Shown here: positions 2,547 to 44,228 of the stretch, piece by piece | Layout: the number at the start of each line of letters is the position of its first letter | Numbering within the stretch: the stretch's first letter is position 1 | Notes under the pieces: model-generated | Database searches by the model: none | What the model was told of the DNA's origin: nothing | Seen by the model: only the letters and a program-made list of their open reading frames with translations | Source: Minisyncoccia bacterium | GTDB taxonomy: Bacteria; Patescibacteriota; Minisyncoccia; Phycocordibacterales; UBA918 | Direction: 5' to 3' | NCBI GenBank assembly: GCA_046598345.1 | Contig: JBKJIT010000003.1 | Span: 5,089-69,088, forward strand | DNA: 64,000 nucleotides | Translations under genes and position numbers: made by a program

Positions 2547-3181
2547 GATGTCTGTAGAATAGTAAGGGTTTCCGCCACAGGGATTAACGCATCCCTCTTT
2601 TCGGGTGCGCGCACATCCAGAACAAAAAACCAACCGGAGTATTTCTCAAAATGAAAAATGACCAAATCGGCATTTTCTCCTATGTGTTCAAGCCCATTTA
2701 TACCAGGAATACTTAGAGTAAGTGGCCTAGTTCGATACGAAGGTCCCACGTATTCCTTGAGTGTTGTTCCAAAAAAGGCTTCCCACGCGGCTTCATGTGC
2801 GTCTTCCTCACCGTTATAGAAAGTCCTGAGAATGATTGAATCAGTTGTACTTGAGACTGCGATGACGCTGTCCTCATTATTCAACTGCTGAACATTCATT
2901 GTGGATTCTGGATATGTGAGAGTGTAGGAAATACCTTTTGTACCCTGTTTCGGCTTATCAAATGTCTTTCCAGTAAAAGTACTCATAGGCTCTGGCGCAG
3001 GAATCACTACGCTTTCAGATACTTCGTTTTGTTTATCTCTTTCGATGGCACCCACTGGCTCTGGTTGACTCTGCTTGTTTCCAAAAAAAAGAAAAAACGC
3101 ATATGCGAGGAGTAATGCAAGCACAACGCTACCCGAACACATGATTGCGTACCCAATAATTTTTTGTTTAGGGGTTGCCAT
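2543..3181 (-). CDS. Membrane-anchored hypothetical protein (N-terminal TM, extracytoplasmic domain)
   Basis: 212-aa ORF whose stop TGA (2545..2543) overlaps the ATG (2546..2544) of the downstream giant surface protein, an ATGA overlap. Hydrophobic N-terminus VVLALLLAYAFFLFF. Confidence 0.5.
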   Translation of the reverse strand: MATPKQKIIGYAIMCSGSVVLALLLAYAFFLFFGNKQSQPEPVGAIERDKQNEVSESVVIPAPEPMSTFTGKTFDKPKQGTKGISYTLTYPESTMNVQQLNNEDSVIAVSSTTDSIILRTFYNGEEDAHEAAWEAFFGTTLKEYVGPSYRTRPLTLSIPGINGLEHIGENADLVIFHFEKYSGWFFVLDVRAPEKRDALIPVAETLTILQTS

Positions 3182-3302
3182 AACAAACCGTGGACAATTC
3201 CAGAGGTATTACCCCTAATATTAGCATGTAGTCACGTCAGTAAATTCACTTTAGTTGAATTCTGTGACTATTTTATAGCGAAACCAGATAATACGGACGG
3301 CC

Positions 3303-3330
3303 TTGACAAAATACCCTATGATGGTATATA
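3303..3330 (+). promoter_or_regulatory. Near-consensus sigma70-type promoter TTGACA-N16-TATATA upstream of 3422 gene
   Basis: TTGACA at 3303-3308, 16-nt spacer, TATATA at 3325-3330. GGAG Shine-Dalgarno sits 8 nt before ATG 3422. Confidence 0.5.
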
Positions 3331-3421
3331 CTCCTTTTCGGTTGGTTTGGTCTTTTCAAAAAAACTTTCGCGGGTAAAACCGCACCCAATTCCTAGGGGG
3401 TAACCTGGGTGGAGATGTGAA

Positions 3422-15017: not shown

Positions 15018-16694
15018 GTGCCGTGGTACCATGGGGGAATGCCGATTTTTGACGATAAAACGCAACAAACTCGAGTGGAAGAACTCCATCACCGAGAGGA
15101 GGAGGCACTTATTCGTGCTCTGGCTCCGAAGTATGGGTACCAATACGTCAATCTCCATGATGTCCCAATCGATAGCGACGCACTCACCCTCATCCCGGAA
15201 GCGGATGCGCGTCTGGCTGAGGTAGTCATTTTTGCTCATGGAAACAATGTACTTTCAATTGCAATCCGTAATCCTAAGAACCCTGAGTCGATCGAAATGC
15301 TCGAGCGGATTAAAAAAATTGGATATACCTCACAGGTATTCATGGCGTCTTTAGGCAGCATTGAATATGGCTGGGAGAAGTACAAAGATATAAAAAATAC
15401 GAGTGCAGAAAAAAGGGGTGTGCTCGACATTGATCCGGATGCGATTATTTCCTTTTCGAAGAGCATTGAGTCACATTTAGACGTTGCGGCAGCAGTAGCA
15501 GAAGTACAGAAAGGAAACGGTTCTGAACAGGTTACGAAAACAATCGAAGTTATTTTTGGAGGTGCCTTGGCACTTAAAGCATCTGACGTCCACATCGAAC
15601 CTGGACCTACAACCGCACGCATTCGGTACCGTCTCGATGGTGTGCTCTGGGATACCATCGATGTGCAAAAAGCACTCTACACACTGATTATTTCGAGGCT
15701 TAAACTTCTTTCAGGGCTGAAGCTCAACATCCACAACGAAGCGCAGGACGGACGATTCACGTTTGATATCGGGGACAGAAAAGTGGAAGTCCGTTCATCG
15801 GTGATTCCAGGTGGCTACGGCGAGTCTATTGTTATGCGACTCCTCGACCCTTCTGCTTCAAGCTTCAAACTTGAATATCTCGACTTGAATACCAGACTGC
15901 GGGAAATAATTACAGCAGAGTTGAAACGTCCGCATGGAGCAATTATTACAACGGGGCCAACGGGTTCAGGAAAAACGACAGCGCTCTATGCATTCCTTCA
16001 AGCAGTCCATACTCCTGAGATTAAGATTATTACCATCGAAGACCCTATTGAATACAAACTCACCGGTATCGTACAAACACAAGTGAGTGAGGACTATTCG
16101 TTTGCGGCTGGTCTCCGTGCCGTACTTCGTCAGGACCCCGACGTTATAATGGTTGGTGAAATCCGTGATCGAGAAGTGGCGGAAACGGTTGTTCACGCAG
16201 CGCTTACTGGGCACCTCGTGTTTTCTACCCTTCACACAAACAGTGCCGTTGGTGCAATCCCTCGCCTCGTCGACATTGGTGTTGACTCACGCATGATTGG
16301 AAGTGCATTCAATTTAATCTTAGGCCAGCGACTCGTCAGGCGGCTCTGTGAGAAATGTAAGGTGGAACGAAATGCGACCACAGAGGAACAGGTGCTGATC
16401 ACAAAGATTATGGAACAGCCCGTTGCGATCCACTCACTCTTTACCGCACCCGGGTGTGATGCCTGTGGCATGAGTGGGTTTAAGGGGCGATTAGGAATCT
16501 ACGAAGCGGTACAAATTGATAAGGAAATGGATGAGGCAATCATTAGTGACCCTAGAGAAGATAGTCTTCGCATTGCGGCGAAGGTACAAAAAATTCCAAA
16601 TCTCCAACAGGATGGGATTATGAAAGTACTTGCTGGTGACACTTCGCTTGAAGAACTCTCGCGTGTTATTGATCTCTATAACGGGGGACGCTAA
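15018..16694 (+). CDS. Type II secretion / type IV pilus assembly ATPase (GspE/PilB family)
   Basis: GspE N-domain, Walker A GPTGSGKTT, MVGEIRD, C-terminal CxxC...CxxC. Start ambiguous: GTG 15018 or ATG 15039. Confidence 0.85.
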   Translation: MPWYHGGMPIFDDKTQQTRVEELHHREEEALIRALAPKYGYQYVNLHDVPIDSDALTLIPEADARLAEVVIFAHGNNVLSIAIRNPKNPESIEMLERIKKIGYTSQVFMASLGSIEYGWEKYKDIKNTSAEKRGVLDIDPDAIISFSKSIESHLDVAAAVAEVQKGNGSEQVTKTIEVIFGGALALKASDVHIEPGPTTARIRYRLDGVLWDTIDVQKALYTLIISRLKLLSGLKLNIHNEAQDGRFTFDIGDRKVEVRSSVIPGGYGESIVMRLLDPSASSFKLEYLDLNTRLREIITAELKRPHGAIITTGPTGSGKTTALYAFLQAVHTPEIKIITIEDPIEYKLTGIVQTQVSEDYSFAAGLRAVLRQDPDVIMVGEIRDREVAETVVHAALTGHLVFSTLHTNSAVGAIPRLVDIGVDSRMIGSAFNLILGQRLVRRLCEKCKVERNATTEEQVLITKIMEQPVAIHSLFTAPGCDACGMSGFKGRLGIYEAVQIDKEMDEAIISDPREDSLRIAAKVQKIPNLQQDGIMKVLAGDTSLEELSRVIDLYNGGR

Positions 16695-18196: not shown

Positions 18197-18748
18197 ATGA
18201 GCGGACATAATAAATGGTCACAAATAAAACATCAGAAAGCCAAGACGGACGGCAAGAAAAGTAAAGTTTTTTCTAAACACGCGAGTGTTATTGCAATGGA
18301 GTCCAAAAAAGCTGAGGGGAACTTGAGTGCCCCGAGTCTTATTGCTGCTATCGAGCGGGCGAAAAAGGACTCGATGCCTAAGGAAAATATTGATAGAGCA
18401 ATACAAAAAGGAAAATCGGCAGACGGCTCATCGCTCAGCGAAGTATTGTACGAAACGTATGGGCCAGGAGGTACTGCGATTCTCGTCACTGCGGTTTCAG
18501 ACAATCCAAAACGTACCACTCCAGAAGTACGGCATATATTATCGAAGCTCGGGTACCAGCTCGGTGGAGTGGGTTCATCAGCGTGGGCTTTTCAAAAGAC
18601 GGCGGAAGGATACGTACCCACTATGGTCGTTGAACTCAGTGAGGCGGATGGTGAAAAACTTGCAGCGCTCGTTGAGGCACTTGAAGAACACGACGATATT
18701 CAAGATATCTTTACGACCGCCGACAGTCCGGAATCTGAGGTATCATAA
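18197..18748 (+). CDS. YebC/PmpR-family probable transcriptional regulator (short form)
   Basis: MSGHNKWSQIKHQKAKTDGKKSKVFSK... canonical YebC N-terminus. Confidence 0.75.
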   Translation: MSGHNKWSQIKHQKAKTDGKKSKVFSKHASVIAMESKKAEGNLSAPSLIAAIERAKKDSMPKENIDRAIQKGKSADGSSLSEVLYETYGPGGTAILVTAVSDNPKRTTPEVRHILSKLGYQLGGVGSSAWAFQKTAEGYVPTMVVELSEADGEKLAALVEALEEHDDIQDIFTTADSPESEVS

Positions 18749-18752
18749 AGAC

Positions 18753-19232
18753 GTGAGAGTTTTAGCACTAGATCCAGGCTATGGGCGTCTCGGCATAGCA
18801 GTTTTGGAACGAATACAAGGAACCGAAACCCTTCTCTACTCCTCTTGTATGGAGACAGATAAAGAATCGCCTATCCCAGAGCGACTGCATGTCATTGGGA
18901 ATATGGTTCTGCGCCTTCTCAAAGAGTACAAGCCGGATTTCCTCAGTGTTGAAACGCTCTTTTTCAACAAAAATATCAAAACGGGTATCGCTGTTGCTGA
19001 GGTGCGTGGCATCATACTCTATCTTGCGAAGGAACATGGGTGTACTATCTGTGAATATGGGCCACAGGAAGTGAAGGTGGCCGTAACAGGTTACGGTAAT
19101 AGCGACAAAGATGCCGTCATACTCATGGTGAAGCGCCTAGTGAAGGGTGCGCCCCCAAAGGCGATCGATGATGAGTACGACGCAATTGCCGTAGGGCTTA
19201 CCTGTCTTGCCCATAATAGGAGTGCGCGCTGA
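18753..19232 (+). CDS. ruvC: Crossover junction endodeoxyribonuclease RuvC
   Basis: VRVLALDPGYGRLGIAV... RNase H-fold RuvC motifs. GTG start 5 nt after the yebC stop. The track's 18327 start is an over-extension. Confidence 0.8.
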   Translation: MRVLALDPGYGRLGIAVLERIQGTETLLYSSCMETDKESPIPERLHVIGNMVLRLLKEYKPDFLSVETLFFNKNIKTGIAVAEVRGIILYLAKEHGCTICEYGPQEVKVAVTGYGNSDKDAVILMVKRLVKGAPPKAIDDEYDAIAVGLTCLAHNRSAR

Positions 19233-27974: not shown

Positions 27975-29126
27975 TTAGTCACCTCGCACCGAGGTGTCAT
28001 ACATCCAGAGGGTACCGTCGTTTTTGTTTATGAAATAGATGTAGTCTCCATTTGCACTTACACCAATCTTTGACACATCAACCTCTCGTCCACTTTCAAC
28101 TTCAAAATCACTGAGGAGTGCCCCCTCGCCAGATGTGATATTAATTTTCCAAAGACCATCGGAAAAGGAGACTATTCCTTTATACCAATCGTCTGGGTAC
28201 AGTGCTTCCGGCATTTTGAAGGGCGCTGCACAGATCAAATGTCCCCCCACGGGTTCCTCGGTGCATTTTTGAGGAAAGAGTGAGAGTGGAAGAGGACGTG
28301 TCTCAGCCGCTGACACATGTGAAGAAGTTAAACTACTTTCAGTAATTTTTGTCATACCGATGCCATACAGTGCAGGAAATGCCATAAGCCCAACCCCACC
28401 TGGAGCCACATATCCAAGGGAACCATTTGTGATTCGATAGAGGTGTCCAATCTGTGCCCCGCTCGGAGTGGTGTATACATATGTGTCTGTCCCCCATACA
28501 ATTTGTATGTCGCGTAGAGGGATTGAAAACAGCACGGAGGTTTGCCCGGTTCCTATGTGGTACTGCACACCCACCGTACCAATATCAGTCGGTTCAATAT
28601 ACGAAATGGTATTTTCCACTGTAAACGCCGCTTCCCGTGCGCGCGGGGGCAGCTGAAGTGTTTCAATTTTTCCTCCAGAACTATCTGAAACATACGTCCC
28701 TAACACAGTCTGTATTCCCGCTTCGGTATCATACGTAATAAGCACTCGTTCACCAGTTTCGTTAAAAATTGCATCTGTTGTACGTGGGAGGGTGGTGCCG
28801 CTGAGGAGCGTTTCATTGCCGCTTAACAGTTGTATTTCATAGAGATGGCCAGTTCCCCGTTCCATGTAGCGTACTCGTTCGCCGATAAAAACAGCACCCG
28901 CAACCGGACGTGTGGTTAGTTGTCGCAGTGCTTTGCGTGATGCTGTGTCATTACTCCCCCCATTTTGTGATGAACTCGGTTCAAAAACGCTTGGTGATCC
29001 AGAACCAAAATTAGCAAAGATGTCTTCCCCATTTTCGGGTGCACCAAACATAAACAAATATACCCATACAACCACAATAAGGAGGATAATGATGATGCCT
29101 GAAATAATGAGAATTGGTTTTTTCAT
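27975..29126 (-). CDS. Membrane-anchored extracytoplasmic protein (possible beta-propeller), last gene of T4SS-like operon
   Basis: N-terminal TM IISGIIIILLIVVVWVYLF. Start ATG 1 nt after the upstream stop. Confidence 0.5.
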   Translation of the reverse strand: MKKPILIISGIIIILLIVVVWVYLFMFGAPENGEDIFANFGSGSPSVFEPSSSQNGGSNDTASRKALRQLTTRPVAGAVFIGERVRYMERGTGHLYEIQLLSGNETLLSGTTLPRTTDAIFNETGERVLITYDTEAGIQTVLGTYVSDSSGGKIETLQLPPRAREAAFTVENTISYIEPTDIGTVGVQYHIGTGQTSVLFSIPLRDIQIVWGTDTYVYTTPSGAQIGHLYRITNGSLGYVAPGGVGLMAFPALYGIGMTKITESSLTSSHVSAAETRPLPLSLFPQKCTEEPVGGHLICAAPFKMPEALYPDDWYKGIVSFSDGLWKINITSGEGALLSDFEVESGREVDVSKIGVSANGDYIYFINKNDGTLWMYDTSVRGD

Positions 29127-29127
29127 A

Positions 29128-29910
29128 TTATGAACCGTTTGCTTTAGGGTACGTGCACACTGAACTTCTTTGATCAGGGTTGCTCACAAATGTACCCTTC
29201 AATTGTGTACATTGTGTTCTGCAGGGTCCGGGAGGGTAGTCAATGATCGGCTGACCACAATTTGTTTCTTCTGCTGTACAGCCACCAACAATTGTCGTCA
29301 CCGCTTCGTAGGTACATGTTTTTGTGGCAGTTTCATATACACAACCAGTGGTATTGTCAGTTGTGCTTTCAGTAAAGGTTCCACCCAGGGCTCTGCACTC
29401 ATTTGCACATAGGCTTATGTCGGCATTACTTTTCGAACAAATTTTTGTTGCGGTCGTCCCAGTCAACCCAGAATTTGTACCAGTTGTTCCCGCGGCGTCT
29501 TTGCTTTTAATAGTAATTGTTGGGGCGTTACCCAAGATATTTAAATTTGTGAGACCAGAATAGATGGTATTCAGTACCACAAATGGAATAAGGAGAATTC
29601 CCAAACCTTTTAATACACCCATAATGTCGTCTTTAGCCTCCTCCTTATTTGTGATCACGTCACCAAAAGCGTACTTCGCACCCGCAATGGTTATTTTAAT
29701 GGCCGCCGCGATGGCACCAATTATAATAAGAAACTTGTAGAGTTGATTTAAGTAGTTTGCGAGGCCCCCGGTAGATGTTGGTGTAATGCCCGGAATCCCC
29801 GCAAGAGGGACAAATTCATTTCCCGCAAACAAAGTAACCGGCAAGATAAGGTACATCACACTTAGGAGAATGAAAGTGGTTACGTTCCTGTGTTGTGAAA
29901 TAGTGTGCAT
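29128..29910 (-). CDS. VirB2/TrbC-like pilin with C-terminal Cys-rich (10 Cys) extension
   Basis: Signal peptide, then two hydrophobic helices separated by a short charged loop (LYKFLIIIGAIAAAIKITIAGAKYAF - GDVITNKEEAKDD - ILLIPFVVLNTIY). Start at MHTIS (29910), 1 nt after the upstream stop. Confidence 0.5.
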   Translation of the reverse strand: MHTISQHRNVTTFILLSVMYLILPVTLFAGNEFVPLAGIPGITPTSTGGLANYLNQLYKFLIIIGAIAAAIKITIAGAKYAFGDVITNKEEAKDDIMGVLKGLGILLIPFVVLNTIYSGLTNLNILGNAPTITIKSKDAAGTTGTNSGLTGTTATKICSKSNADISLCANECRALGGTFTESTTDNTTGCVYETATKTCTYEAVTTIVGGCTAEETNCGQPIIDYPPGPCRTQCTQLKGTFVSNPDQRSSVCTYPKANGS

Positions 29911-29911
29911 G

Positions 29912-30898
29912 TTATTTAAAGAAAACATCGAATGCACCTGCGACGTACGTGGGGATCTCTCCGACGTGTTTGAGTACATACCGGAATCCAAGATTCGCAG
30001 ACCCTTCGCCCCCAGTATGACGGAGAGTAATAGCATTCTGCTCACTGTTTCCAGGATTTACGGAGCTACCATTCATTGTCCACTCCGCATCCCCTTCCCC
30101 TCCAACATTACGAGTGTCCATAAAATACGGCTCAGCGAGAATGGTGGTTTCTTCCCCAGTCATTGTAAATGTGGGCGTGAGTGCCTTACGACTTAGTCCA
30201 CGGAGAGGATTTGTTTCATAAAAATACAGTTCAGGCTCTACTCCATTCAGAAGAATAATATTTCGGCCGAGAGTCGATCGATTAGTGTCGTACACCGTCA
30301 CCATAAGCCTATGGTCTGCATACGGGGGCATATCAAAAGTTACTGCATACTTTCCCTGTACTGGTCCGCCAAAGAGAACACTGCCATCGAGTGACCATTC
30401 ATAGGTGTAGCGTTCCGGGGCGGTGTTGGTTTTTCCATGCACAATTGCAATCGCACGAATAGGAGCATTCTCTGCCGGAAGTGCTCTCCCCTCATAGAAA
30501 TCGGGAACGCTCGTTTCCGCCTCAATAATAAGATCTACAGCACCGACTTGAATAGAAAGTTCCGTTTGAAGCGGGACACCATTTGAGGTCATTCGGACAC
30601 GTACCGTATGCTCGGTGCCAATTTTTCCGGTAGTAAACGAAATTGAACGCTCGTTTCTTCCTTCAATCATCTCCTTTCCGTCTACATACCAGAAGATGCT
30701 TGACCCTACTGTATTCATAGAATATGCATCGAGAGTAACGGTGACGGTGGAATTCGGTTGAGGAAAGCTTGGTACAGTAGAAAGTGAGATTTTACTCTGA
30801 TAGTCTGAAAGGGATTGTGCGTTCGATGGAGAACTTGAAAGAACAATGCTGCAGAGAAGCATTGCAAAAAAAAGTAGGCCGTTTCGAACGCGTACCAT
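29912..30898 (-). CDS. Secreted protein (signal peptide, beta-rich/Ig-like), T4SS-like operon
   Basis: MVRVRNGLLFFAMLLCSIVLSSSPSNA signal peptide. Confidence 0.5.
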   Translation of the reverse strand: MVRVRNGLLFFAMLLCSIVLSSSPSNAQSLSDYQSKISLSTVPSFPQPNSTVTVTLDAYSMNTVGSSIFWYVDGKEMIEGRNERSISFTTGKIGTEHTVRVRMTSNGVPLQTELSIQVGAVDLIIEAETSVPDFYEGRALPAENAPIRAIAIVHGKTNTAPERYTYEWSLDGSVLFGGPVQGKYAVTFDMPPYADHRLMVTVYDTNRSTLGRNIILLNGVEPELYFYETNPLRGLSRKALTPTFTMTGEETTILAEPYFMDTRNVGGEGDAEWTMNGSSVNPGNSEQNAITLRHTGGEGSANLGFRYVLKHVGEIPTYVAGAFDVFFK

Positions 30899-30924
30899 TA
30901 CCTCTAGTGTATCATTCGGAGTCG

Positions 30925-31824
30925 TCAACTGGCCGGGTTTTCGTGGATTAGTGCGACGGTAGATCTCACCTTTACAATTATGACCCAGATGAGAAGCCAG
31001 GGACCAATATTTGTTACGGGGAGAAAGCTCAGGGTAAAGCAAAGCGGCGTCAGTAGGGGGTGTTTTTTATTCACCTCAATCCCCGTAATGTAAAACGAAA
31101 TAATACAAGCGAGAAATACTCCAATGGTGATCAGTGCAGCGACACCCCAAAATGCCCACCCCAGTAAATCTGGTTGAAGCGCTGAATTGGCAAGGCTGAA
31201 TATCCAATTCGTGGCAAAGCCATGCCATGCGGTAGTTTTTGACCCTTCGATCGTGGCATATATTCCCCAGGCAATGAGTGTAATAAGTGCACAGATGAAT
31301 TGCCATACATACGCAGTTGCAACGAATCCAACTATTCCCCAACCCACAAGGCTTCGTGCCTGCTTTCCTTTTTGAGCAATTTGCTTCACCTGTCCCGCAG
31401 CACGCTGTGCATTGGCCAATCGCCCGCCTGCGCCCTCCAACCGTCTTGCCGTCTCTCCAGAACTTTGAGCACCACTGGTACTCTTCATTAGGGCAGTTTT
31501 TTCCTTGATATCTTGTGCAACACCCTTTTCTCCTGTCTCGGTTCGAAATCGCGCTGAAGAAGCAAGTGGGGATTCGTAGTGGGTCTCTACATTTTGTGGT
31601 GAAGACTGAGGTGAAGATTTGCGGACGGCGTGTCGGTGAAGGGTCCGCACCTTTTGTATAGAGTAGGAAGGGTCATTTGCGGCTTCTTCTCGTGAATCCC
31701 GGTCTCTAATTGCATCAGGATTATACCGATCCTCAAGCACGTGTTCCATTCCAGGTTGTTGATCAACACGACGAGGGTCTGCCCACGCATCATTTTTTCG
31801 TACCGTGCTCCTATCCCCTTTCAT
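30925..31824 (-). CDS. Membrane protein with hydrophilic N-terminal region and about 4 C-terminal TM helices, T4SS-like operon
   Basis: TM segments from LVGWGIVGFVATAYVWQFICALITLIAW onward. Confidence 0.5.
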   Translation of the reverse strand: MKGDRSTVRKNDAWADPRRVDQQPGMEHVLEDRYNPDAIRDRDSREEAANDPSYSIQKVRTLHRHAVRKSSPQSSPQNVETHYESPLASSARFRTETGEKGVAQDIKEKTALMKSTSGAQSSGETARRLEGAGGRLANAQRAAGQVKQIAQKGKQARSLVGWGIVGFVATAYVWQFICALITLIAWGIYATIEGSKTTAWHGFATNWIFSLANSALQPDLLGWAFWGVAALITIGVFLACIISFYITGIEVNKKHPLLTPLCFTLSFLPVTNIGPWLLIWVIIVKVRSTVALIHENPAS

Positions 31825-31846
31825 AATTGTTTATATGAGGCGTATG

Positions 31847-33643
31847 TTAGCCATTACCTTGAAGTTCCGCACGGGCATTCTTTATTTGGAGAATTTGTGA
31901 GGGATCAGAAGTAATGATTTGGTCTTCTGTGTAGGAAGCAATAACTTTAATCGCTACATGTTTTAGTCCTGCAAAGAAAATCCCTTCGCCAACTCCCGAC
32001 TCAAGGAGAAGAAACTTCTCTTCATCGGTAAGGTTGAATACACTTTGGAGCGTATCGACTGCGGTTGGCGATTGTTTCATAAGCATCTGCATAGATGAGT
32101 TCGTGATCATCGGGACTCCGTACGGTGAGCGGAGGAAGTCATCCACATCCTGCGTAATGGTCGCAATCCCGAGGTAATATTTGCGACCGCGCTTTGCAAG
32201 GCTGTGAAGGAATTCAGCCGTGTCGGGGGATTTGAGCATCCACCACGCCTCATCGATAACGAGGAGTCGCTTCTTCAGCTCTCTCCGGATCGCGCCCCAA
32301 ATGTGACTTGTAACGATGTACATCGCAATGGTTTTGAGTTCCTCCTCCATGTCTCGGAGAGAAAAGACGATAAAACGCTGGTTGATGTCGATGTTCGTGG
32401 ATTGATTGATGAATCCTGACCACGTACCTGAAGTATATTTTGACAGACGTTGTACGAGTGACTCACTTCCCTCCATACCTGCGAGAACCATTTCAAAGTC
32501 GGAGAGCAGTGGTGGTTCGAGGTTGGTGTAGTCATTATTACCAGTGATGTCCTTTAGTGCATATGTTTCGCGGAGTGCCTGGTCAATAATGGCATCTTCT
32601 TCAGGTGTAAGCCCTGAAAGCATGAGCTTAAAAAGTCCAACGAGCTCAATAATATGTGATCGGAGAAGGTCCTCAGGATTCTCGTCCGCCTGTGGAGGTG
32701 GAAGATCAAATGGATTAATGTGGTGGCTCGACGAGAGAGAAATATTGAAGAAACGTCCTCCAGTTGCCTCTGCGAGGTACTCGTACTCTCGTTCAGGATC
32801 GATCACGATAATCTCTGTACCAAACATGAGTGAGCGAAGAATCTCGAGCTTCAACGCATAGGATTTACCTGCACCGGAGGTAGCGAAAGTCACCGAGTTG
32901 TAATTGGGGAGAGAGAAACGGTCAAAGAGAACGAGCGATGAGTTGTGCCTGTTGATGCCGTAGAGAATACCCGTGTCTGAAGTAAGGTCAAATGAAGTGA
33001 ATGGGAAGAAGCTTGAGAGTGGTGAAGAGTTAAATTTGCTATGCACGAGCAGTTTGTCGCTCACCGTTGGAATAACGCTTGCAAATCCTTGCTCTTGCTG
33101 GAAGAGCGCTGGTTTAATGTAAATAAGTCGTGCATCGAGCGAGGTCTTAATTTCCGCTTCTGTTTTATTGAGTTCCGTTTCAGTATCTCCATAAATAGCC
33201 ACGTAGAGCCCCACATCAAAAAGTTTCTCTTCTGCTTGTTGGAGTTTGTCGCGAAGATCTTCCAGGTTGCGGTATGCTGCGTCAAGTTGTGGGTCACGCA
33301 CCTGGTGATGCTCTTCGCGCATATTTATCTGGCTCTGCACCTCTGCCACCTTCTTCGTAAATTTCTTTAATGTTTCAGCGGTACTAATGGGGTGAATGAT
33401 GATCGTGACATCGAGTTCGCGTTCAATATTGAGAATTGGCTCCATCCAACCATCGTTCAAGTACCGTGGGTAGGAAACCGCAAAAAACACACGTGCGAGC
33501 TTGCCACTTATGCTAATGCTCCTTGGATTAATGCTGATTGCGGCAGGCGCAACTACATCTTCCATAGTGAGCGGCGCATCGCTCCCCACGATTTCCATTT
33601 CGTCTTCCTTCTTATGTGGTTTTAATGCGTCAAAAATTCCCAT
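31847..33643 (-). CDS. VirB4/TrbE/TraC-family type IV secretion ATPase
   Basis: Walker A TSGAGKSYAL, Walker B LLVIDEAWWML, RKYYLGIATITQDVDDF. CagE/TrbE/VirB-type N-domain. Confidence 0.8.
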   Translation of the reverse strand: MGIFDALKPHKKEDEMEIVGSDAPLTMEDVVAPAAISINPRSISISGKLARVFFAVSYPRYLNDGWMEPILNIERELDVTIIIHPISTAETLKKFTKKVAEVQSQINMREEHHQVRDPQLDAAYRNLEDLRDKLQQAEEKLFDVGLYVAIYGDTETELNKTEAEIKTSLDARLIYIKPALFQQEQGFASVIPTVSDKLLVHSKFNSSPLSSFFPFTSFDLTSDTGILYGINRHNSSLVLFDRFSLPNYNSVTFATSGAGKSYALKLEILRSLMFGTEIIVIDPEREYEYLAEATGGRFFNISLSSSHHINPFDLPPPQADENPEDLLRSHIIELVGLFKLMLSGLTPEEDAIIDQALRETYALKDITGNNDYTNLEPPLLSDFEMVLAGMEGSESLVQRLSKYTSGTWSGFINQSTNIDINQRFIVFSLRDMEEELKTIAMYIVTSHIWGAIRRELKKRLLVIDEAWWMLKSPDTAEFLHSLAKRGRKYYLGIATITQDVDDFLRSPYGVPMITNSSMQMLMKQSPTAVDTLQSVFNLTDEEKFLLLESGVGEGIFFAGLKHVAIKVIASYTEDQIITSDPSQILQIKNARAELQGNG

Positions 33644-33662
33644 GGCATCTATATAGTAACGT

Positions 33663-34289
33663 CTATTGCTTGGGCGCGCTCGACATGTCTGTAGGATTAA
33701 AAATGTGGTAGTACAGCTCTATGAGCGCGTCGTTTCCTAGCGCCGCCGTACGCACCCCGATGCGCGATAGACCCTGCTCTACCACACTCACGCGCTGCTC
33801 AAGCTGACTCCGCTCTTCTGCAAATTTAGCAGCATCCATCCCCACACTTTTTTTCTTCGCTCCAATGTTGAGAAGGTCTTTAATTCCCGCAGTATCAATA
33901 CCACTCGGAGTGTAGGGCACAACGACGAAGAAGTTTTTAGACATAATGTCTACCTCTTCGGTAAACGAACGGATAAACTCCATGTATTCGCGGAGTTGAA
34001 TCTTCATGAGGTCGTTGTACTGGCCTGCCTCGTGCGAGCGGAGCACTTCCATGTATGGGCGAATGTCGAGACGACGAGATTGTATGTAGATCTGCAGTGA
34101 GAAATCAATGGTATTAAGGAATGATTGAAAGTTGGTGAGGATTGCCTCCTGTTCCGCCGCTGACTTGAGAGCAAAGTTGATCGACGATGCGAGGAGCACC
34201 ATGCACATTTGCCCATTTTTAAGTATGACAATTCCATCACGGATATCCTTGATGGGAACAAAATGTTGTGTGGGAGAAGTAGTTGCCAT
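33663..34289 (-). CDS. Soluble 208-aa protein immediately upstream of VirB4-like ATPase (possibly a split-off VirB4 N-terminal/accessory domain)
   Basis: 20-nt gap to the ATPase gene; no TM. Confidence 0.45.
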   Translation of the reverse strand: MATTSPTQHFVPIKDIRDGIVILKNGQMCMVLLASSINFALKSAAEQEAILTNFQSFLNTIDFSLQIYIQSRRLDIRPYMEVLRSHEAGQYNDLMKIQLREYMEFIRSFTEEVDIMSKNFFVVVPYTPSGIDTAGIKDLLNIGAKKKSVGMDAAKFAEERSQLEQRVSVVEQGLSRIGVRTAALGNDALIELYYHIFNPTDMSSAPKQ

Positions 34290-34291
34290 AC

Positions 34292-34702
34292 TTATTTAGT
34301 GTCGTTCATATTTAATTCAAGCTTGTGTGCGAGAGCTGCGAGATTTTGCTTTTGCATTGGAATATTCTCGGGAACCTCAACTGGCTCTTCACGCTTTGTC
34401 ACAATACTCTGCTCTTTTACCTTCCTCCAAAGATATAACTTGCTTCCACTAAAATAACTCACAAACGCCTCAAGAAACGATGAAAATGGACGATTATTGA
34501 CCTGGTGGAATGCAAGAAAACCTGCGAGGGAGGCAACGGGGATTGCGAATAGGAGGAATAGGAGGAATGGAAGCATAAAAAAGAGCACCACACAGAGCCC
34601 CACCCCACCCGCAACATACACAAACTGCTTCCAGGTAAGTGGGCCGACGATCTTGTCTTCAACGTCAATAAATTGAGGTACTTCAAAGCGCATACACCAC
34701 AT
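34292..34702 (-). CDS. VirB3/PrgI(TcpE)-like small 2-TM protein
   Basis: 136 aa, two adjacent TM helices (VYVAGGVGLCVVLFFMLPFLLFLLFAIPVASLAGFLAF), positioned just upstream of the VirB4-like gene. Confidence 0.45.
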   Translation of the reverse strand: MWCMRFEVPQFIDVEDKIVGPLTWKQFVYVAGGVGLCVVLFFMLPFLLFLLFAIPVASLAGFLAFHQVNNRPFSSFLEAFVSYFSGSKLYLWRKVKEQSIVTKREEPVEVPENIPMQKQNLAALAHKLELNMNDTK

Positions 34703-34742
34703 TGTATCCTACTTTTCCTCGAGCTTTATGAAGCCGTGCGGA

Positions 34743-35279
34743 TTATTCCTTCCCCTCGTTTTTTGCTGCATCAGCTTTTATGCGCGCAGCTTCAATATCA
34801 CTCGCCATCGTGCGCTTTGGAGAAAGTGCATTCATGAGTTCTTCGCGCGTAAGTGGTCGTGCCATTTCTTCAACAATCCCCACTTCTGGCGATACAGAGT
34901 TTTGTTTTTGCACGCCCTCGGGACGAAGATCTAGACGTTCTTTAGAATCTGAAATTTCAAAAGTTTGTTTCACCGCAGAAGAAGTATTCGCTCTCCCCTC
35001 AATTGGCTCTAGAAATTCTTTTAAGTCACTCGCGATTTTATCGGCTTCGTCTGAAGACACTTTTACGTTTTCAACCATAAGTTTTTTCAAGTCAGATATT
35101 GGATAGAAACCCAATATTATGTCTCCAACAACATTTATAAGGGCATACTTGTCTGATACAGAATATTTTTTGATGAGCGAAAGAAAAAGTTCACCACTCT
35201 CTTCCGAGCTATACATTGACGCATATGATTCAGGAAGTTGTGAGAACGCCGCTAAACGCATTTCTTTTGTGATTGTCAT
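34743..35279 (-). CDS. Soluble hypothetical protein, T4SS-like operon
   Basis: Start at MTITKEM (35279), 2 nt after the VirB6-like stop. Confidence 0.45.
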   Translation of the reverse strand: MTITKEMRLAAFSQLPESYASMYSSEESGELFLSLIKKYSVSDKYALINVVGDIILGFYPISDLKKLMVENVKVSSDEADKIASDLKEFLEPIEGRANTSSAVKQTFEISDSKERLDLRPEGVQKQNSVSPEVGIVEEMARPLTREELMNALSPKRTMASDIEAARIKADAAKNEGKE

Positions 35280-35281
35280 AT

Positions 35282-37489
35282 TTATTTTCCAAATTGAACT
35301 CCCAATGCAGAACTGAGCCAATTGTCTGCCGCGCTAAGGTAGGCGGCGTTAGGTAACGGAGGACCGCCCGCAGCTATTGCCGCGTTGTTTGCAGCGATAG
35401 CTGTTTCGAGTTGGGTCCTAATATGTGCCTGATCGACGGTATTTATTGTTGAGTCTTGAGCTATCTTAGCCAGAGCATTTACGGGAATTTCAGTGCTAAT
35501 CAGTTTCAATACTTCTGCGGGCATTTTTGCAATTTCTCCTGATTTTTGTTTAAGTATGTGATCCTTATCAAGTGTTGCTGGTGCCCCTGCTCTCATCGTA
35601 GCAATCGGAATGTTTTGAGCTAGCTGTTTCAGTGCATCTTCGCGTTTTTTAGAAAGATTACCAAACTCAGTTTTTGTAAACTTTTTCTTTAGATCATCCA
35701 TTTGCGAAGAGGTTAGACGTGCTGCATATTCAGGATCCTCAAGGAACTTTGCTCCAAGCCATTCAAGGTGCTCTGCACTTGCTTTCGCGAGAGAATCACG
35801 ATCTGCTTCGTATATCGCTTTAATTGCATCAGATTTCTTACCTTTAATTTTATTTTTTTCTTCCTCACTGAGTTCAGTGCTCTTGTCGAGTCCCTCAATT
35901 TGGCTTGTAGACAAGTCAGCCGCAATTGCTTCTCGCTCTTCTTGGCTGAGTCCCTCAAGGATCTTTGTGGTGGCGTCTGCAACTGCTCGCTCTTTTTTAA
36001 TACGAGCTACATCCCCAGCACTCCCCAGTGGCGCAGCTACACCCCCTGCGATAGCATCTTTGAGTTTTGCTTTTTCGCCACTCACCGTTCGCTCATTTTT
36101 AATCTCCTTTTTTTCCTTTTTTGCTTCTACACGTGACTGGGAGCTACCAAACTTAGCTTCTGCTCCCGCATGTGCAGCACCATACACTCCCGTTCCTCTC
36201 ATAAGACCCGCAGCTCGCTGTTGCCATTTATTATCGCTTTTACGCATATCTTCTTGTTTGTGTGCAATTGCATAGCCCAATCGTCCCACAGTGTTTCTCC
36301 CGGCAAATCCTTGAATACCCCCACGGATTTTGTTTGACCAGTCCTTTCCAAGTGACATTGCCTTGTCGGCACCCTTGATGCCAAATTCCTGTGCAATTTT
36401 GAGAGAAAAGATCAAGAACATGATGCTGATAATAAAAAGTAAGACGACATCAAACATTCCTGCGGAAGCAGCGGGGTTTCCTGCAAGTTGACCACTTCCT
36501 GAAAGGGCATCGGAAAGAGATTTCACTGGGTTTCCTTTTGCATCCAAATAATTTAGTGATTTGAACGCCCCATCAAGAATGTGAATAGAAATAAGAAGCA
36601 AAAATATGTATGCAGGTGCAAAGAAAGAGTAACTAATCAGTTTCGAAATAAGATCGTCCGCGTACTTTTTAGTTTGGGGAAATACTCTGGCCGCAAAAAT
36701 AATTGGGGAAAACACCATAATCAGTACAAGCGCAACGAAGCGGACAATGAGGAGAATGCCTCCTGCTGCAAGGACAAACCCCGCGATCATGAGAAACACT
36801 GCTCCCATCACAAAGAAGGCAAAACTCCCGCCGCCGGTGAGCTTGGCCGTTGCCTCTGGCTCCATGGTATTCCAGAAGGTTTGAATCCCCATAAGGCTTG
36901 CAAATTTTTCTGATATGTTTTTGTTGGTTGATCCCTTCAGCATGGTGGTGTAGGTCTCCACAGCAATGTAGTTTGAAACATCGATGACCACTTTTGTGAA
37001 AAAGAGACTGAAGTTAATGAGGAGAGCACCGATGATGATCGCGGCAAGCGTGCGTTTCACGTCAGCACTTTCTGAATCAAGGATGGTCCTGATACCCAAG
37101 TAAATAAATCCAAAGATAAAGGCAAGGTTCGCAAGGTCACGAATAGTAGTCCAGGCTGAATTAATAGCAACACCAAGATCCCCCTTCACTAATGCACCTA
37201 ACCCAAGCACCAACTTATCAATCGAAACTTCAAGAATCATTCCCCCCACCCACGTAGCCCGAGAGGCAACATAGAGAATCATGTTTCCGATTGTGTTTCC
37301 CATCATTGAGAGGATGTCCACTCCTCCTTGGGCTGCTGCTCCTCCTGCCACGGCAGCGGGGGGTGCAACCTCACCGGCCGCAAAAACAGTGTGTACTTCC
37401 AGAAAAAGTGCTGAAAACACAAATACGCAAGATAAAATTCCTAGAAGAATTTTTTGAATTTTTGTGTTGTGAGTGTTAACGGCAACCAT
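35282..37489 (-). CDS. VirB6/TrbL-like polytopic membrane protein with long C-terminal hydrophilic extension
   Basis: Signal/TM N-terminus, at least 6 TM helices in the first 400 aa, then a charged coiled region (K/E/A-rich). Confidence 0.55.
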   Translation of the reverse strand: MVAVNTHNTKIQKILLGILSCVFVFSALFLEVHTVFAAGEVAPPAAVAGGAAAQGGVDILSMMGNTIGNMILYVASRATWVGGMILEVSIDKLVLGLGALVKGDLGVAINSAWTTIRDLANLAFIFGFIYLGIRTILDSESADVKRTLAAIIIGALLINFSLFFTKVVIDVSNYIAVETYTTMLKGSTNKNISEKFASLMGIQTFWNTMEPEATAKLTGGGSFAFFVMGAVFLMIAGFVLAAGGILLIVRFVALVLIMVFSPIIFAARVFPQTKKYADDLISKLISYSFFAPAYIFLLLISIHILDGAFKSLNYLDAKGNPVKSLSDALSGSGQLAGNPAASAGMFDVVLLFIISIMFLIFSLKIAQEFGIKGADKAMSLGKDWSNKIRGGIQGFAGRNTVGRLGYAIAHKQEDMRKSDNKWQQRAAGLMRGTGVYGAAHAGAEAKFGSSQSRVEAKKEKKEIKNERTVSGEKAKLKDAIAGGVAAPLGSAGDVARIKKERAVADATTKILEGLSQEEREAIAADLSTSQIEGLDKSTELSEEEKNKIKGKKSDAIKAIYEADRDSLAKASAEHLEWLGAKFLEDPEYAARLTSSQMDDLKKKFTKTEFGNLSKKREDALKQLAQNIPIATMRAGAPATLDKDHILKQKSGEIAKMPAEVLKLISTEIPVNALAKIAQDSTINTVDQAHIRTQLETAIAANNAAIAAGGPPLPNAAYLSAADNWLSSALGVQFGK

Positions 37490-37492
37490 ACT

Positions 37493-39076
37493 TTATGGAG
37501 CAAATGGGGTACGCAAATCAACAGCAATTGAACAGTCGGATGCGACGGGGCAGGTAAGTGTCGGTCCAGTCGCATTTCGGACATTCACGTACACAGTGCT
37601 GCCTGGAGTTAAATTCGCCTGTGTTCCTGATACATTTCCATTAATTGAGAAGGTGATGCCGGCGCTCGGCGTTCCACCACTTCGTGTGTCTGGGTATTCT
37701 GTCGTTGTAAAATTACACGGAACGCTGGAGACATTGTATTCGCGAGAGACACTAACGGGTGTCACTGTTTGTCCTTCAGTATCGCTGTACGCTGGCAAAG
37801 TGAAAATATCAACCGTGCCTGCCTTTTTCGGCAATTCCCCATTAAATGAGGCTGGGATCTGGAGCTTGATAGCCACATTAGAATTACCCGCTCCCGTCAT
37901 TAACACTTTTCCCATCTCAACACCATCATCTACTGGCCAATCCAAAATCGCTTCGTAACACGAATTACTCTGAGATCCTACAACAGTCTGGCGCACATCT
38001 TGGTAGGTCGGGGTTTCTGGTCGTGGGGTATTATCCACGTAACTATACCCCTCCGTCGTAGTGGCCAGGGTGCTACTTCCCACCCTATCGAGATAACTAA
38101 GTCCACTCCCGTTCTTTGAATTCGTAAGACCAACGAGCCCGCCGGCCTCTTTCATTGCCATTTTTGCAAGTTGTGTAAAAAGCGCTGCAATAATTTCGTT
38201 GATTTCGTCTGCAACCATGATGCGATCCACGGGAATGCCAAGAGTTCTATCGAGCGTATCTTTTATGGTGCTTCCTGGTGTGACTGTTTGACACTCTTGT
38301 ACTCCGGCAGCCGGGCCTTCGGTAATGGTAAAACACTCTTGCCTACTTAAAAACCCATTTCCAAAATCAAGACGCTTATACTCCTGCCCGCGTGCGTTAG
38401 AAAGCCGTTCTGAAAGTTCCCATTGCCCCAAAAGCATTGCCCCATACGGATTGTTCTGAGCATTTGTAGTCATTTGAAACCATCCATCCCACCCCCCAGC
38501 GAGGAAATTACCATTCATGAAACTCTCTACATTACTCGTAACTTTTGAAAGTGTACATGCCTGAGCGGAGCCCTTCCCAAAATCTCTTCCGGACTTGTAT
38601 TGCAAATTGAGTGCGAGCTTAATGTCGAGTTGAAGTGGAGAACAAAGAAAGTTGAGTGCCGTGCCTTCGAGAAAGTTCCCTGCAACCTCATCCCCAATGC
38701 CCTGCATAAACCCTCCCAAGTTCGTCACAAACGCTGGACTTCCTTGGAAGCCCGAATTAATCCAGTTGATTGTTTCCTGTGTAAGTTGTTGAAGGATAAG
38801 GTTAACTGCATACCAGGCAACGCCATCAAGCCAACCCTCTTTCATTTTAAGATATTCATTCGCCCAGGCAGAAATTGCTGCCTGTGCACCGGTGTACCAC
38901 GCACCAATTGCAGTCACAGCAGTCTCTATATCTGCGATTAAATCTGCGACTATCCATTGTGCATTTGCTGTTGGGGTTTTGTGTGTAGGGGCATATGCGC
39001 CACCAATAAGCGAAAGTACAATGAAGAGTGAGAGAATGAACTTTGCACAGCGCTTTGTAAAGAAGTCTTTCATCAT
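37493..39076 (-). CDS. Large secreted protein (527 aa, signal peptide, Cys pairs), T4SS-like operon
   Basis: MMKDFFTKRCAKFILSLFIVLSLIGGAYA signal. ATGA overlap with the upstream gene. Confidence 0.5.
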   Translation of the reverse strand: MMKDFFTKRCAKFILSLFIVLSLIGGAYAPTHKTPTANAQWIVADLIADIETAVTAIGAWYTGAQAAISAWANEYLKMKEGWLDGVAWYAVNLILQQLTQETINWINSGFQGSPAFVTNLGGFMQGIGDEVAGNFLEGTALNFLCSPLQLDIKLALNLQYKSGRDFGKGSAQACTLSKVTSNVESFMNGNFLAGGWDGWFQMTTNAQNNPYGAMLLGQWELSERLSNARGQEYKRLDFGNGFLSRQECFTITEGPAAGVQECQTVTPGSTIKDTLDRTLGIPVDRIMVADEINEIIAALFTQLAKMAMKEAGGLVGLTNSKNGSGLSYLDRVGSSTLATTTEGYSYVDNTPRPETPTYQDVRQTVVGSQSNSCYEAILDWPVDDGVEMGKVLMTGAGNSNVAIKLQIPASFNGELPKKAGTVDIFTLPAYSDTEGQTVTPVSVSREYNVSSVPCNFTTTEYPDTRSGGTPSAGITFSINGNVSGTQANLTPGSTVYVNVRNATGPTLTCPVASDCSIAVDLRTPFAP

Positions 39077-39951
39077 TGTTCAAAAAGATACATAAGTGCA
39101 CCAGCCTCTTCGTTAGAAAAAGAAATGTCGTTAGCTTTAAAAACATTCACCATTTCTCCAGCTGTTGTGAAGAAAGCCTGTAAATCATCTTGGTAACGAT
39201 TTGCGCGCGCAAGACCGAAGAGGGGATCTTCGAACATGCCCTTCATAGCAACGAGATCGAAACGGACTGCCTCATACCCATTTATAAATCCAAGGTGCAC
39301 ATCTATAAGATTCACTGGAGTTGGTACTGCGAGCATCTCTTTGATCATTGTTTCGTACGCATCGATACTTGGTTGGAGTTTTTCAATAAGCTCACGGTCA
39401 TTTGTCTGAAGTGCCTTTAGGAGGGTCTGCCCATTTCCATCCCCAGAGTTGTCGGCGGGATACATGCCTACAATGCGGAAAATTTCATTTGCATACATGC
39501 GCATGCTTTCTTCCGAGACAGGAATGATGGTGAGCTCAAGTCGTGAATGCCGTTTACTTTCGGTATTTTGTTCGATTGCTTCCACCGCAGTGTCTATAAA
39601 TGCCGTGGGATCTTCAAACGATTCCCCACTCCCCTTACGCGACATGTAGTCTTGGAAAAATGCGACCGCAAACTTTCCCGTGAAGGTCGTGGGTGGCGTG
39701 TAGCTCGCCACTCCCGCGAGAAGTGTTGACGATGCTGATACTGAAGGGATGATGTTTTTGCTTATCTCGTCCTCCCAGTCCGGAGTACCATTTTGATCCG
39801 CATCAATTTCCCGGATGTGGTTTTTTTCAGGAGCTTGAATCACCAGTGCTGCTTGCGAAATTGCTTCGTCTCCGGTGCGTGCATAAAAGGCTATTGCGAT
39901 AAGTGCAACACCACAGAGTACCGCTCCTCCTATACGAATAATGCCTTTCAC
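39073..39951 (-). CDS. N-terminally anchored extracytoplasmic protein, first gene of T4SS-like operon (VirB8/TcpC-like topology)
   Basis: TM GGAVLCGVALIAIAFYA followed by a 270-aa soluble domain. Confidence 0.45.
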   Translation of the reverse strand: MKGIIRIGGAVLCGVALIAIAFYARTGDEAISQAALVIQAPEKNHIREIDADQNGTPDWEDEISKNIIPSVSASSTLLAGVASYTPPTTFTGKFAVAFFQDYMSRKGSGESFEDPTAFIDTAVEAIEQNTESKRHSRLELTIIPVSEESMRMYANEIFRIVGMYPADNSGDGNGQTLLKALQTNDRELIEKLQPSIDAYETMIKEMLAVPTPVNLIDVHLGFINGYEAVRFDLVAMKGMFEDPLFGLARANRYQDDLQAFFTTAGEMVNVFKANDISFSNEEAGALMYLFEQ

Positions 39952-42846: not shown

Positions 42847-43205
42847 CTATAGCATGAGCGCTCCTTTGGGGATGTGAAAAGTGTATGAAAAGGCTTTAAG
42901 CCATTATTACACAATAAGATTTAAAGTTTGCATATAGCTACAAAATGGCGTTTCCAAAGGGTTAAATTGAGTTTTTTATCACACTGTGGACAACGATTTT
43001 TGGCAAGGTTGCTACTCGTCCCTATTCCGATATCATAGTGAAGTACTGATGAAGTGGTACAGAAAAAAAGGGGGTCTACGATCCGCTTTTTTATTTCGGT
43101 AATTGCTGTAATGGAAGTATTGCGGAGAGTCCATAACATTTGCATATAGAATCTCACTACAAAAAATCTGATACCTCCCATAAGCGTTCGGGTACAAGAG
43201 GTCAG

Positions 43206-44228
43206 ATGACATACAGTTCATTCAAGCGGGTGTCTTTTGCACCACTTTCGCTCTCTTTACCCGTTCTCGTTGGTATTCTTGTTAATGCCAGCATTTACTT
43301 TGCAATCTACTCAGTGAATGAAAAGGCAGAAGCTGAAGGCTTCGCTGTTTCTCCTATGAATGCGCAGACGATGCCACTTCTTAAAGCAACTCATTCGGTA
43401 CATCAAAATTCTGCGAAAGGAGGGGGCGATATTATTGTTGAGGATGGATCTCTCGTGTCTCCTAATGATGTGAGTGAAAGGGATGACGCAGAAAATGGAA
43501 AGACATCTAATGGTGAGATTAGCCTCTATCTCGTCCGTGAAGGAGATACCCTCTCACAAATTGCCGATATGTTTGAAGTGAGTGCGAAGACGATTCTTTG
43601 GGCAAACGACCTTAAGTCTGCTGGACTCATTAAACCAGGTTCATCACTCGTTATTCTTCCTATTACGGGCGTACGACATATTGTAAAAAAGGGTGACACC
43701 ATAGCGTCAATTGCTAAGAAGTACAGTGGAGACGTCGATGATATTCTTTCGTACAACCAACTTACCTCAGGTAGCGAACTTACGGTTGGAGACACGGTCA
43801 TGATTCCTGATGGCACGATTACTGTACCTACTCCTGCGCGAAGTGCCACCGGAAAGGCTGGAGGAAGTGCAGTTGCAAGTGGGGGGGCACTCTCAAACCC
43901 GCTTCCGGGTGGTGTAAAGACACAGGGAATTCACGGATACAACGGTGTTGATCTATCAGGAGTGCCAGTAGGAAGTTCAGTGGTTGCGGCCGCCGCGGGA
44001 GATGTAATTGTGGCAAAGGGTTCTGGCTGGAATGGTGGGTACGGAGCATACATAGTTATTAAGCATCCAAACGGTACACAAACACTGTACGCTCACCTCT
44101 CAAGTGTGTCTGTTTCCGTAGGGCAGTATGTTGGAAAGGGAGCGGTGATCGGTGGTATGGGTAATAGTGGTCGCTCAACCGGGCCGCACCTACACTTTGA
44201 AGTTCGAGGATCACGGAATCCGTTTTAG
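43206..44228 (+). CDS. Membrane-anchored LysM(x2)-M23 peptidase (peptidoglycan endopeptidase)
   Basis: Two LysM repeats (GDTLSQIADMF..., GDTIASIAKKY...). M23 motifs HGYNGVDL and HLHFEV. TM near the N-terminus. Confidence 0.8.
   Translation: MTYSSFKRVSFAPLSLSLPVLVGILVNASIYFAIYSVNEKAEAEGFAVSPMNAQTMPLLKATHSVHQNSAKGGGDIIVEDGSLVSPNDVSERDDAENGKTSNGEISLYLVREGDTLSQIADMFEVSAKTILWANDLKSAGLIKPGSSLVILPITGVRHIVKKGDTIASIAKKYSGDVDDILSYNQLTSGSELTVGDTVMIPDGTITVPTPARSATGKAGGSAVASGGALSNPLPGGVKTQGIHGYNGVDLSGVPVGSSVVAAAAGDVIVAKGSGWNGGYGAYIVIKHPNGTQTLYAHLSSVSVSVGQYVGKGAVIGGMGNSGRSTGPHLHFEVRGSRNPF

Follow-up and report, generated by a model that had tools for sequence, protein, structure and literature searches.

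The DNA analysed here (hereafter, the window) is a stretch of 64,000 nucleotides from a Minisyncoccia bacterium, and our subject is one gene in it: a continuous open reading frame (ORF) of 260 amino acids (aa) at positions 29128–29910 of the minus strand (a strand that the first-pass annotation of this DNA had not stated), which is gene 10 of an 11-gene minus-strand operon (27975–39951) of a type IV secretion system (T4SS). Its ATG, at 29910, lies 1 base past the stop codon of the upstream gene, and the ATG of the downstream gene lies at 29126; by their ORF coordinates, the pilin gene and both its neighbours are tightly packed. The product (hereafter, the query) appears to be a pilin-family protein with a VirB2-like plan, extended at its C-terminus by a cysteine-rich tail. 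Its parts, in order from the N-terminus, are:

29821–29910, minus: predicted signal peptide, residues 1–30 (n-region HTISQHR, hydrophobic core, ...LFAG/N), from hydropathy and the alignment of relatives
29527–29820, minus: pilin core, residues 31–128, from AlphaFold2, Pfam, and profile search
29449–29526, minus: Thr/Gly/Ser-rich low-complexity linker, residues 129–154, from composition and a predicted local distance difference test score (pLDDT) below 50–60
29326–29448, minus: module A, residues 155–195 (C158, C168, C172, C190; CSKSNADISLCANECRALGGTFTESTTDNTTGCVY), from a regular expression and module alignment
29269–29325, minus: inter-module segment, residues 196–214, with the extra pair C199 and C211, from sequence and an AlphaFold2 strand at 195–206
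29140–29268, minus: module B, residues 215–257 (C218, C230, C234, C252; CGQPIIDYPPGPCRTQCTQLKGTFVSNPDQRSSVCTY), from self-match and phmmer
29128–29139, minus: last three residues and stop codon, from ORF coordinates

Three hydrophobic segments are seen in the hydropathy profile (residues ~9–30, 56–80, and 94–120), with the charged loop GDVITNKEEAKDD between the second and the third. An AlphaFold2 model built from an alignment of 143 relatives, which supersedes a run with 16 sequences that gave a pLDDT of 48.6, contains helices at residues 49–82 and 86–116 (pLDDT 83–95), in agreement with the signal peptide and helical hairpin that the first-pass annotation had described; the predicted topology continues into an extracytoplasmic tail. 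The core is composed of a PLxGxPG N-terminal segment, helix 49–82, the charged loop (83–95), a helix at ~96–120, and the end motif LTNLNIL. In aligned relatives, small residues precede the conserved mature N-terminus (Y-x-P-L-x-G-x-P-G), and the signal-peptide cleavage site presumably lies near the end of residues 1–30.

The start codon merits comment, because the NCBI call for the identical protein (P0001) is 242 aa long and begins at Met19. That start leaves a leader of only 12 residues, from which the charged n-region is gone and most of the signal peptide is cut off (window 29856–29910, minus strand). Since 25–35 residues precede the Y-x-P-L-x-G-x-P-G segment in all relatives of the alignment, we prefer the 260-aa start, and the public gene call appears to begin 18 codons late. 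A longer GTG start at 30045 was rejected because it runs into the upstream gene, and an origin by frameshift or as a gene-fusion artefact was rejected because the ORF is unbroken and its architecture is common to the relatives. A type IV pilin, as found in type IV pili (T4P), was also rejected, as the N-terminus (MHTISQHRNVTTFILLSV...) is without both the class III leader G/(F,M)-T-L-x-E and the conserved Glu5.

The query matches the Pfam family T4SS_pilin (PF18895) with 20.1 bits (E = 6.6e-4) over residues 48–107, covering model positions 3–62 of 71. The same family is matched at E ≤ 0.01 by 87 of the 143 aligned relatives (best E = 2.5e-9), three relatives carry a precomputed PF18895 match, and TrbC (PF04956) is reached at E ≤ 0.01 by only 4/143. 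In the PDB, the core profile has no significant sequence relative. These matches support membership of the query in the Patescibacteria ‘T4SS_pilin’ family, at a sub-threshold Pfam score of its own; judged in this way, it is VirB2-like in plan and not a demonstrated VirB2 homologue. The earlier designation as a VirB2-like pilin therefore stands at the level of PF18895 and of the T4SS operon, but not in the sense of homology to Agrobacterium-type VirB2, which was not detected by hhalign. The accompanying statement that canonical VirB2/TrbC pilins are about 100 aa long and without extension agrees with the eight annotated canonical genes, which encode 98–120 aa, as against 260 aa for the query.

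All ten cysteines of the query lie in the tail, as first described, at residues 158, 168, 172, 190, 199, 211, 218, 230, 234, and 252, and none occurs earlier. Cysteine makes up 62 of the 14,421 residues (0.43%) in the 38 other predicted proteins of the window, a background against which at least 10 cysteines in 103 residues have a binomial P of 3.5e-11; there is no cysteine in VirB4 (598 aa) and a single one in VirB6 (735 aa). Eight of the ten fall into two copies of a four-cysteine module with the spacing C-x9-11-C-x3-C-x17-C-x-Y. Module B is a tandem duplicate of module A: residues 168–196 and 230–258 form a gapless 29-residue match with a BLOSUM62 score of 52, which none of 2000 shuffles reached (mean 17, maximum 51), and phmmer aligns the two modules as well. 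On grounds of parity only, C199 is presumed to pair with C211.

In the AlphaFold2 model, each CxxxC lies in a short helix (162–174 and 229–236) packed on strands (pLDDT 57–87); in module A, C168 and C172 sit in helix 162–174, between strands 152–158 and 178–183. The disulfide pairing itself is our proposal and is not read from the model. Across the family, the module takes the form C-x(6-14)-C-x3-C-x(12-22)-C-x-[YFW], often C...D..C...C..L.GTF...C.Y. Of 187 full-length relatives, 26 have the complete module and 44 have its CxxxC...C.[YFW] core; apart from the query, only P0125 among these relatives has two copies. The two tandem modules of P0125 (residues 179–282; CTAGISDPDKC..QC..L.G...C.[FY]) are near-identical, so this duplication looks far more recent than that of the query, which suggests that module duplication recurs. 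No Pfam family matches the module at E ≤ 10, and in the PDB there is no significant relative, the best matches being at E = 1 for the tail sequence and at E = 0.059 for the module profile (an unrelated TNFR-type domain). Nor does the four-cysteine module occur outside pilin ORFs in the window or the related loci examined.

The distribution of the tail was assessed with a profile of the core (alignment A2), searched against 1.84 billion cluster representatives, which returned 14,311 matches at E ≤ 1e-3 and 205 at E ≤ 1e-30. Nearly all of the best 150 matches are 200–330 aa long with the core at the N-terminus. These 150, together with the proteins of the first homologue search, form a set of 157 proteins, 149 of which carry tails of 50 aa or more (median 110, range 51–194 aa). 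These tails are rich in T, G, S, A, and P, and their first cysteine follows a G/S/T/P-rich linker with a median length of 36 residues. The number of cysteines per tail is 0 in 3 tails, 2 in 15, 3 in 2, 4 in 44, 5 in 1, 6 in 49, 7 in 1, 8 in 25, 10 in 8, and 12 in 1; that is, 142 tails have an even, non-zero number (2–12), 4 an odd number, and 3 none, for which the binomial P, if the sequences were independent, would be 2e-37, a value that overstates the significance because they are related. From this wide spread of even counts it follows that cysteines are probably gained and lost in pairs, as expected of extracytoplasmic disulfides. The pattern extends to further secreted products of the operon, with 8 cysteines after the leader in a 527-aa protein and 2 in a 383-aa protein.

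Divergence is much faster in the tail than in the core, with median identities to the query of 21% and 51%, respectively, and a shuffled baseline of 17%. Relatives without the Cys-rich tail were also found, although they are few. At one related locus (L003, positions 3001–3408), a 135-aa pilin with 59% core identity ends in ‘LNILRLAP’ immediately before the conserved downstream gene; since the linker and Cys-rich tail are missing there while the flanking genes are kept, the tail seems dispensable for the role of the core. P0168 and P0006 look tail-less in the same way, P0187 has a low-complexity, Cys-free tail, and several other short entries lie on contigs of ~1–2 kilobases (kb) and are possibly truncated. 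The search for homologues with and without the extension, which the first-pass annotation had recommended, thus yielded both. Its description of an unusual fusion is apt only in comparison with canonical VirB2; among the sequences compared here, with 149 of 157 own-clade relatives tailed and 142 of these tails bearing an even, non-zero number of cysteines, a Cys-rich tail is the norm of the query's subfamily and not a one-off fusion.

No second pilin-family gene was found in the window or in the syntenic clusters. With a single pilin gene, the domain would be present on every subunit along the shaft and not at its tip, and the tip-like role first proposed for it is accordingly unlikely.

The remaining genes of the operon, all on the minus strand, are listed below from the upstream end, with two further related loci (L001 and L002) for comparison:

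37493–39951, minus: two genes, of 527 aa and 292 aa, each with an N-terminal hydrophobic segment, also in L001 and L002
35282–37489, minus: VirB6/TrbL-like polytopic membrane protein, 735 aa, ~9 hydrophobic segments (PF04610, E = 2e-8)
34743–35321, minus: 192-aa ORF without Pfam match, between the VirB6-like and PrgI/VirB3-like genes, position conserved
34292–34702, minus: PrgI/VirB3-like protein (PF12666, E = 7.9e-10)
33663–34289, minus: TrsD-like protein, 208 aa, a separate gene resembling the VirB4 N-terminus (NCBIfam VirB4_plasma and TrsD matches)
31847–33643, minus: VirB4-type ATPase (P-loop part), 598 aa (PF19044, E = 5.4e-25)
30925–31824, minus: membrane protein of up to 299 aa, with orthologues of 221–223 aa in L001 and L002
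29912–30898, minus: upstream flank of the pilin gene, ~328-aa secreted protein with a weak Ig-like BiPBP_C match, with orthologues in L003 (329 aa), L001, and L002
27975–29126, minus: downstream flank of the pilin gene, 383-aa protein with an N-terminal membrane anchor, 2 cysteines, and no Pfam match, with an orthologue after the pilin gene in L001–L003

This layout agrees with that of published Patescibacteria T4SSs, in which VirB4, TrsD, PrgI/VirB3, VirB6, and VirB2-like pilins are encoded near dnaA, dnaN, rnpA, ksgA, and rpmH, and a relaxase is usually absent (PMC12102498). In the window, virB4 is on the same strand as the pilin gene, two genes upstream, an order kept in L001, L002, and L003; the first two of these loci have all 11 genes in identical order and lie beside yidC, rnpA, rpmH, and dnaA (L002 also beside dnaN). 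The flanks within the window contain yidC and rnpA (plus strand), dnaA, dnaN, ksgA (RrnaAD), a UvrD-type helicase, and an M23/LysM peptidase. The counterparts of the 192-aa ORF, at the same position, are 190 aa (L001) and 156 aa (L002) long. No relaxase or coupling protein is found among the annotated genes of the window. The operon members other than those annotated as T4SS components are secreted or membrane-anchored and without a Pfam family, and the named relatives derive from metagenome-assembled genomes of Paceibacterota and Kaiserbacteria.

Several observations concern individual operon genes. VirB4 is split into two genes 19 bases apart (31847–34289, minus strand); because L001 and L002 have the same split, and because separate TrsD-like and VirB4 genes are typical of Patescibacteria (PMC12102498), the split is not a frameshift. 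The 527-aa secreted protein (37493–39076, minus strand), with no Pfam family and 8 cysteines after its leader, is a candidate for a further disulfide-bonded extracellular T4SS component. Both genes flanking the pilin gene are kept beside it at every related locus examined, the tail-less L003 included; their products may be pilus-associated factors, and a PDB sequence search with the two proteins gave nothing significant. A LysM and M23 peptidase gene at 43140–44228 (plus strand) lies 3 kb from the operon, and its product is a possible cell-wall-opening, VirB1-like partner, by analogy with the proposal made for Paceibacteria (PMC12102498).

We read the locus, with somewhat better than even confidence, as encoding the single VirB2-like subunit of a conserved, origin-proximal T4SS of Patescibacteria (Paceibacteria/Kaiserbacteria-like), a subunit that carries an outward, disulfide-rich tail. 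A Sec-type leader would direct export, after which the hairpin would span the membrane, its loop on the cytoplasmic side; whether the leader is cleaved or even remains uncleaved, the second helix would exit outward and place the tail outside the cytoplasm, which is consistent with its paired cysteines. The outward tail would be locked by five disulfides. The VirB4/VirB6/VirB3 machinery would extract and polymerise the subunits, with the helices forming the wall of a fibre similar to the F and T pili, and each subunit would display, through a flexible tether, a ~10-kDa disulfide-stabilised domain on the outside of the fibre, giving a variable coat that could contact the surface of the host cell in recognition or adhesion. 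In the F pilus, subunits contact one another through their two hydrophobic domains, the lumen is lined by the basic loop, and the C-terminus is exposed at the pilus surface (PMC10939261); by analogy, the tail probably decorates the exterior of the fibre. Patescibacteria have yielded no PrgB-type adhesin, and arrays of divergent pilins are known chiefly from Saccharimonadia and Microgenomatia (PMC12102498). For these two reasons we favour host-surface recognition as the role of the tail, a role also consistent with the tail being hypervariable and dispensable; an adhesin function is plausible, and the tail is perhaps a host-recognition surface. In cultures of Patescibacteria with methanogens, T4SS pilins belong to the strongly expressed extracellular genes (PMC10936435).

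Several points weigh against this reading. The query falls under the gathering scores of both PF18895 (20.1 versus 26.6 bits) and TrbC (PF04956; 18.1 versus 27.9 bits, E = 3.3e-3), and it has no similarity to the eight annotated plasmid VirB2/TrbC proteins in hhalign (probability 0.2%), a weak test given that alignments A2 and A3 are low in diversity. A T4SS pilus has so far been seen on no Patescibacterium, nor is there an experimental pilus for any member of this protein family (PMC12857230). The models of the modules are only moderately confident (pLDDT 57–87), and adhesion, polymerisation, and disulfide formation of the pilin are inferred from sequence. The sub-threshold Pfam scores, the negative hhalign result, and the unobserved pilus are also what would be expected if the protein were not a pilin at all, but an unrelated membrane protein whose cleaved leader is followed by two transmembrane helices, and if ‘T4SS_pilin’ were a misnomer for the family; helical hairpins are, moreover, structurally generic. 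We hold this to be very improbable, as the gene keeps its place in the T4SS operon from genome to genome, the PF18895 signal is broad (87/143 relatives), and leader length, helix lengths, and loop position fit the VirB2 plan. In addition, a cultivated Saccharibacterium, Candidatus (Ca.) Southlakia epibionticum, cannot do without the pilin genes of this family in its T4SS cluster (PMC10633639).

If the protein is a pilin, the tail could still have a purpose other than host contact. It could be structural, as a fibre-stabilising sheath, as the anchor or spacer of a short conduit in the peptidoglycan or S-layer of a monoderm envelope, or as a docking site for the secreted proteins of the operon. 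Presence of the tail in 95% of close relatives suggests a general role of this kind, the operon has several conserved secreted or anchored proteins (two with paired cysteines), and the absence of any observed Patescibacteria T4SS pilus (PMC12857230) would suit this reading. A partner-binding domain would, however, be expected to be conserved, whereas the identity of the tail is near the shuffled baseline (21% versus 17%), its length varies from 51 to 194 aa and its cysteines from 2 to 12, and it is absent at some syntenic clusters; on balance, we regard a structural tail as unlikely. Another possibility is removal of the tail at maturation, either as a discarded pro-region or as a released disulfide-rich peptide (signal, toxin, or effector) for which the core would be the export vehicle. 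Canonical RP4 TrbC and Agrobacterium VirB2 are indeed trimmed at the C-terminus before they cyclise, proteases would be able to reach the flexible linker, and disulfide-stapled helix-plus-strand modules resemble secreted defence peptides in general design. Yet no TraF-like or other maturation peptidase was recognised (five conserved operon proteins have no Pfam family), no conserved cleavage motif is seen at the junction of core and linker beyond LTNLNIL, and the module, which lacks the CxC of cysteine-stabilised alpha-beta (CS-alpha-beta) peptides, has no toxin relative in Pfam or the PDB, all of which leaves removal of the tail quite improbable. A retained, outward-facing tail that meets the host surface remains our preferred reading.

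The closest known counterparts are the VirB2-like pilins of other Patescibacteria (Quinonero-Coronel et al. 2025, PMC12102498; Wang et al. 2023, PMC10633639), with which the query shares the leader, the two-helix hairpin, and the setting near virB4, trsD, prgI, and virB6 at the replication origin. Those published pilins are small and are often encoded in arrays of 2–11 divergent paralogues, whereas here a single gene encodes a 130-aa hypervariable tail. A Cys-rich or disulfide-bonded C-terminal domain on Patescibacteria pilins is mentioned neither in these key papers (PMC12102498, PMC10633639) nor in what full-text searches returned, within an incomplete coverage of the literature. With VirB2 (Ti plasmid), TrbC (RP4), and TraA (F), the query shares a plan of a long signal-peptidase leader and two hydrophobic helices; in these canonical conjugative pilins, the polar loop faces the lumen and the C-terminus the outside of the fibre (PMC10939261), and genes for VirB3 and VirB4 homologues adjoin. 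The canonical pilins differ in being 98–120 aa long without an extra domain, in having no detected profile–profile similarity to the query, and in belonging to diderm systems, whereas the system of the query is monoderm-type (similar to the mating-pair formation (MPF) type MPF-FATA).

Other likenesses are of design only. Type IV pilins also combine a conserved helical assembly core with a surface-exposed, disulfide-stabilised, fast-evolving C-terminal D-region that serves receptor binding and antigenic variation, but they are an unrelated family with a different assembly machinery, and the query is without their class III prepilin leader. Flagellins carry, in D2/D3, a hypervariable and dispensable surface domain on every subunit of a helical polymerisation core; theirs, in an unrelated family, is an insertion between core helices with few or no disulfides, whereas that of the query is a tethered C-terminal tail. 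CS-alpha-beta peptides have, as does the query, a CxxxC in a short helix packed on strands that carry the partner cysteines, from which the query's module differs in its lack of CxC, in having only four cysteines per module, and in its lack of a Pfam or PDB match.

Patescibacteria account for much of bacterial diversity and live in attachment to other microbes; where their chromosomal T4SS has been tested, in one species, it proved essential (PMC10633639). No adhesin has been found in these T4SS clusters, and a pilin with a fast-evolving, disulfide-stabilised outer domain is a concrete candidate for the recognition surface. We suggest, tentatively and as a doubtful rather than a probable proposition, that the Paceibacteria-type major pilin itself carries the determinant of host specificity, so that the whole fibre or conduit would act as a polyvalent adhesin. 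If so, diversification of the tail (by module duplication, loss, and change in cysteine number) would take the place of pilin paralogue arrays or of the PrgB-type adhesins of Gram-positive conjugation, and tail sequence could predict the host of an uncultivated epibiont. The T4SS and its VirB2-like pilins are already known from papers of 2023–2025, and the tail is family-wide and not unique to this window; what is specific to the query, as far as the compared sequences tell, is the tandem duplication of the four-cysteine CxxxC module. As far as the searchable literature goes, this would be the first natural case of a folded domain appended to a VirB2-type pilin. The even-cysteine rule and the CxxxC module provide sequence markers for annotating proteins that are now all labelled ‘hypothetical’.

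Elsewhere, the window holds ordinary chromosomal genes, and scans of it for Rfam families and tRNAs gave nothing relevant. A gene for a PilB/GspE-type ATPase (15018–16694, plus strand; T2SSE, E = 1e-110, with an MshEN domain) is located among ruvA, ruvB, and ruvC, suggesting that the genome also encodes a distinct type IV pilus system. In the region 18197–19232 (plus strand), a GTG-started ORF of 301 aa, of which the RuvC domain covers residues 145–292 only, overlaps another ORF at 18197–18748; the true start of ruvC is probably further downstream, or else the protein has an unannotated N-terminal extension.

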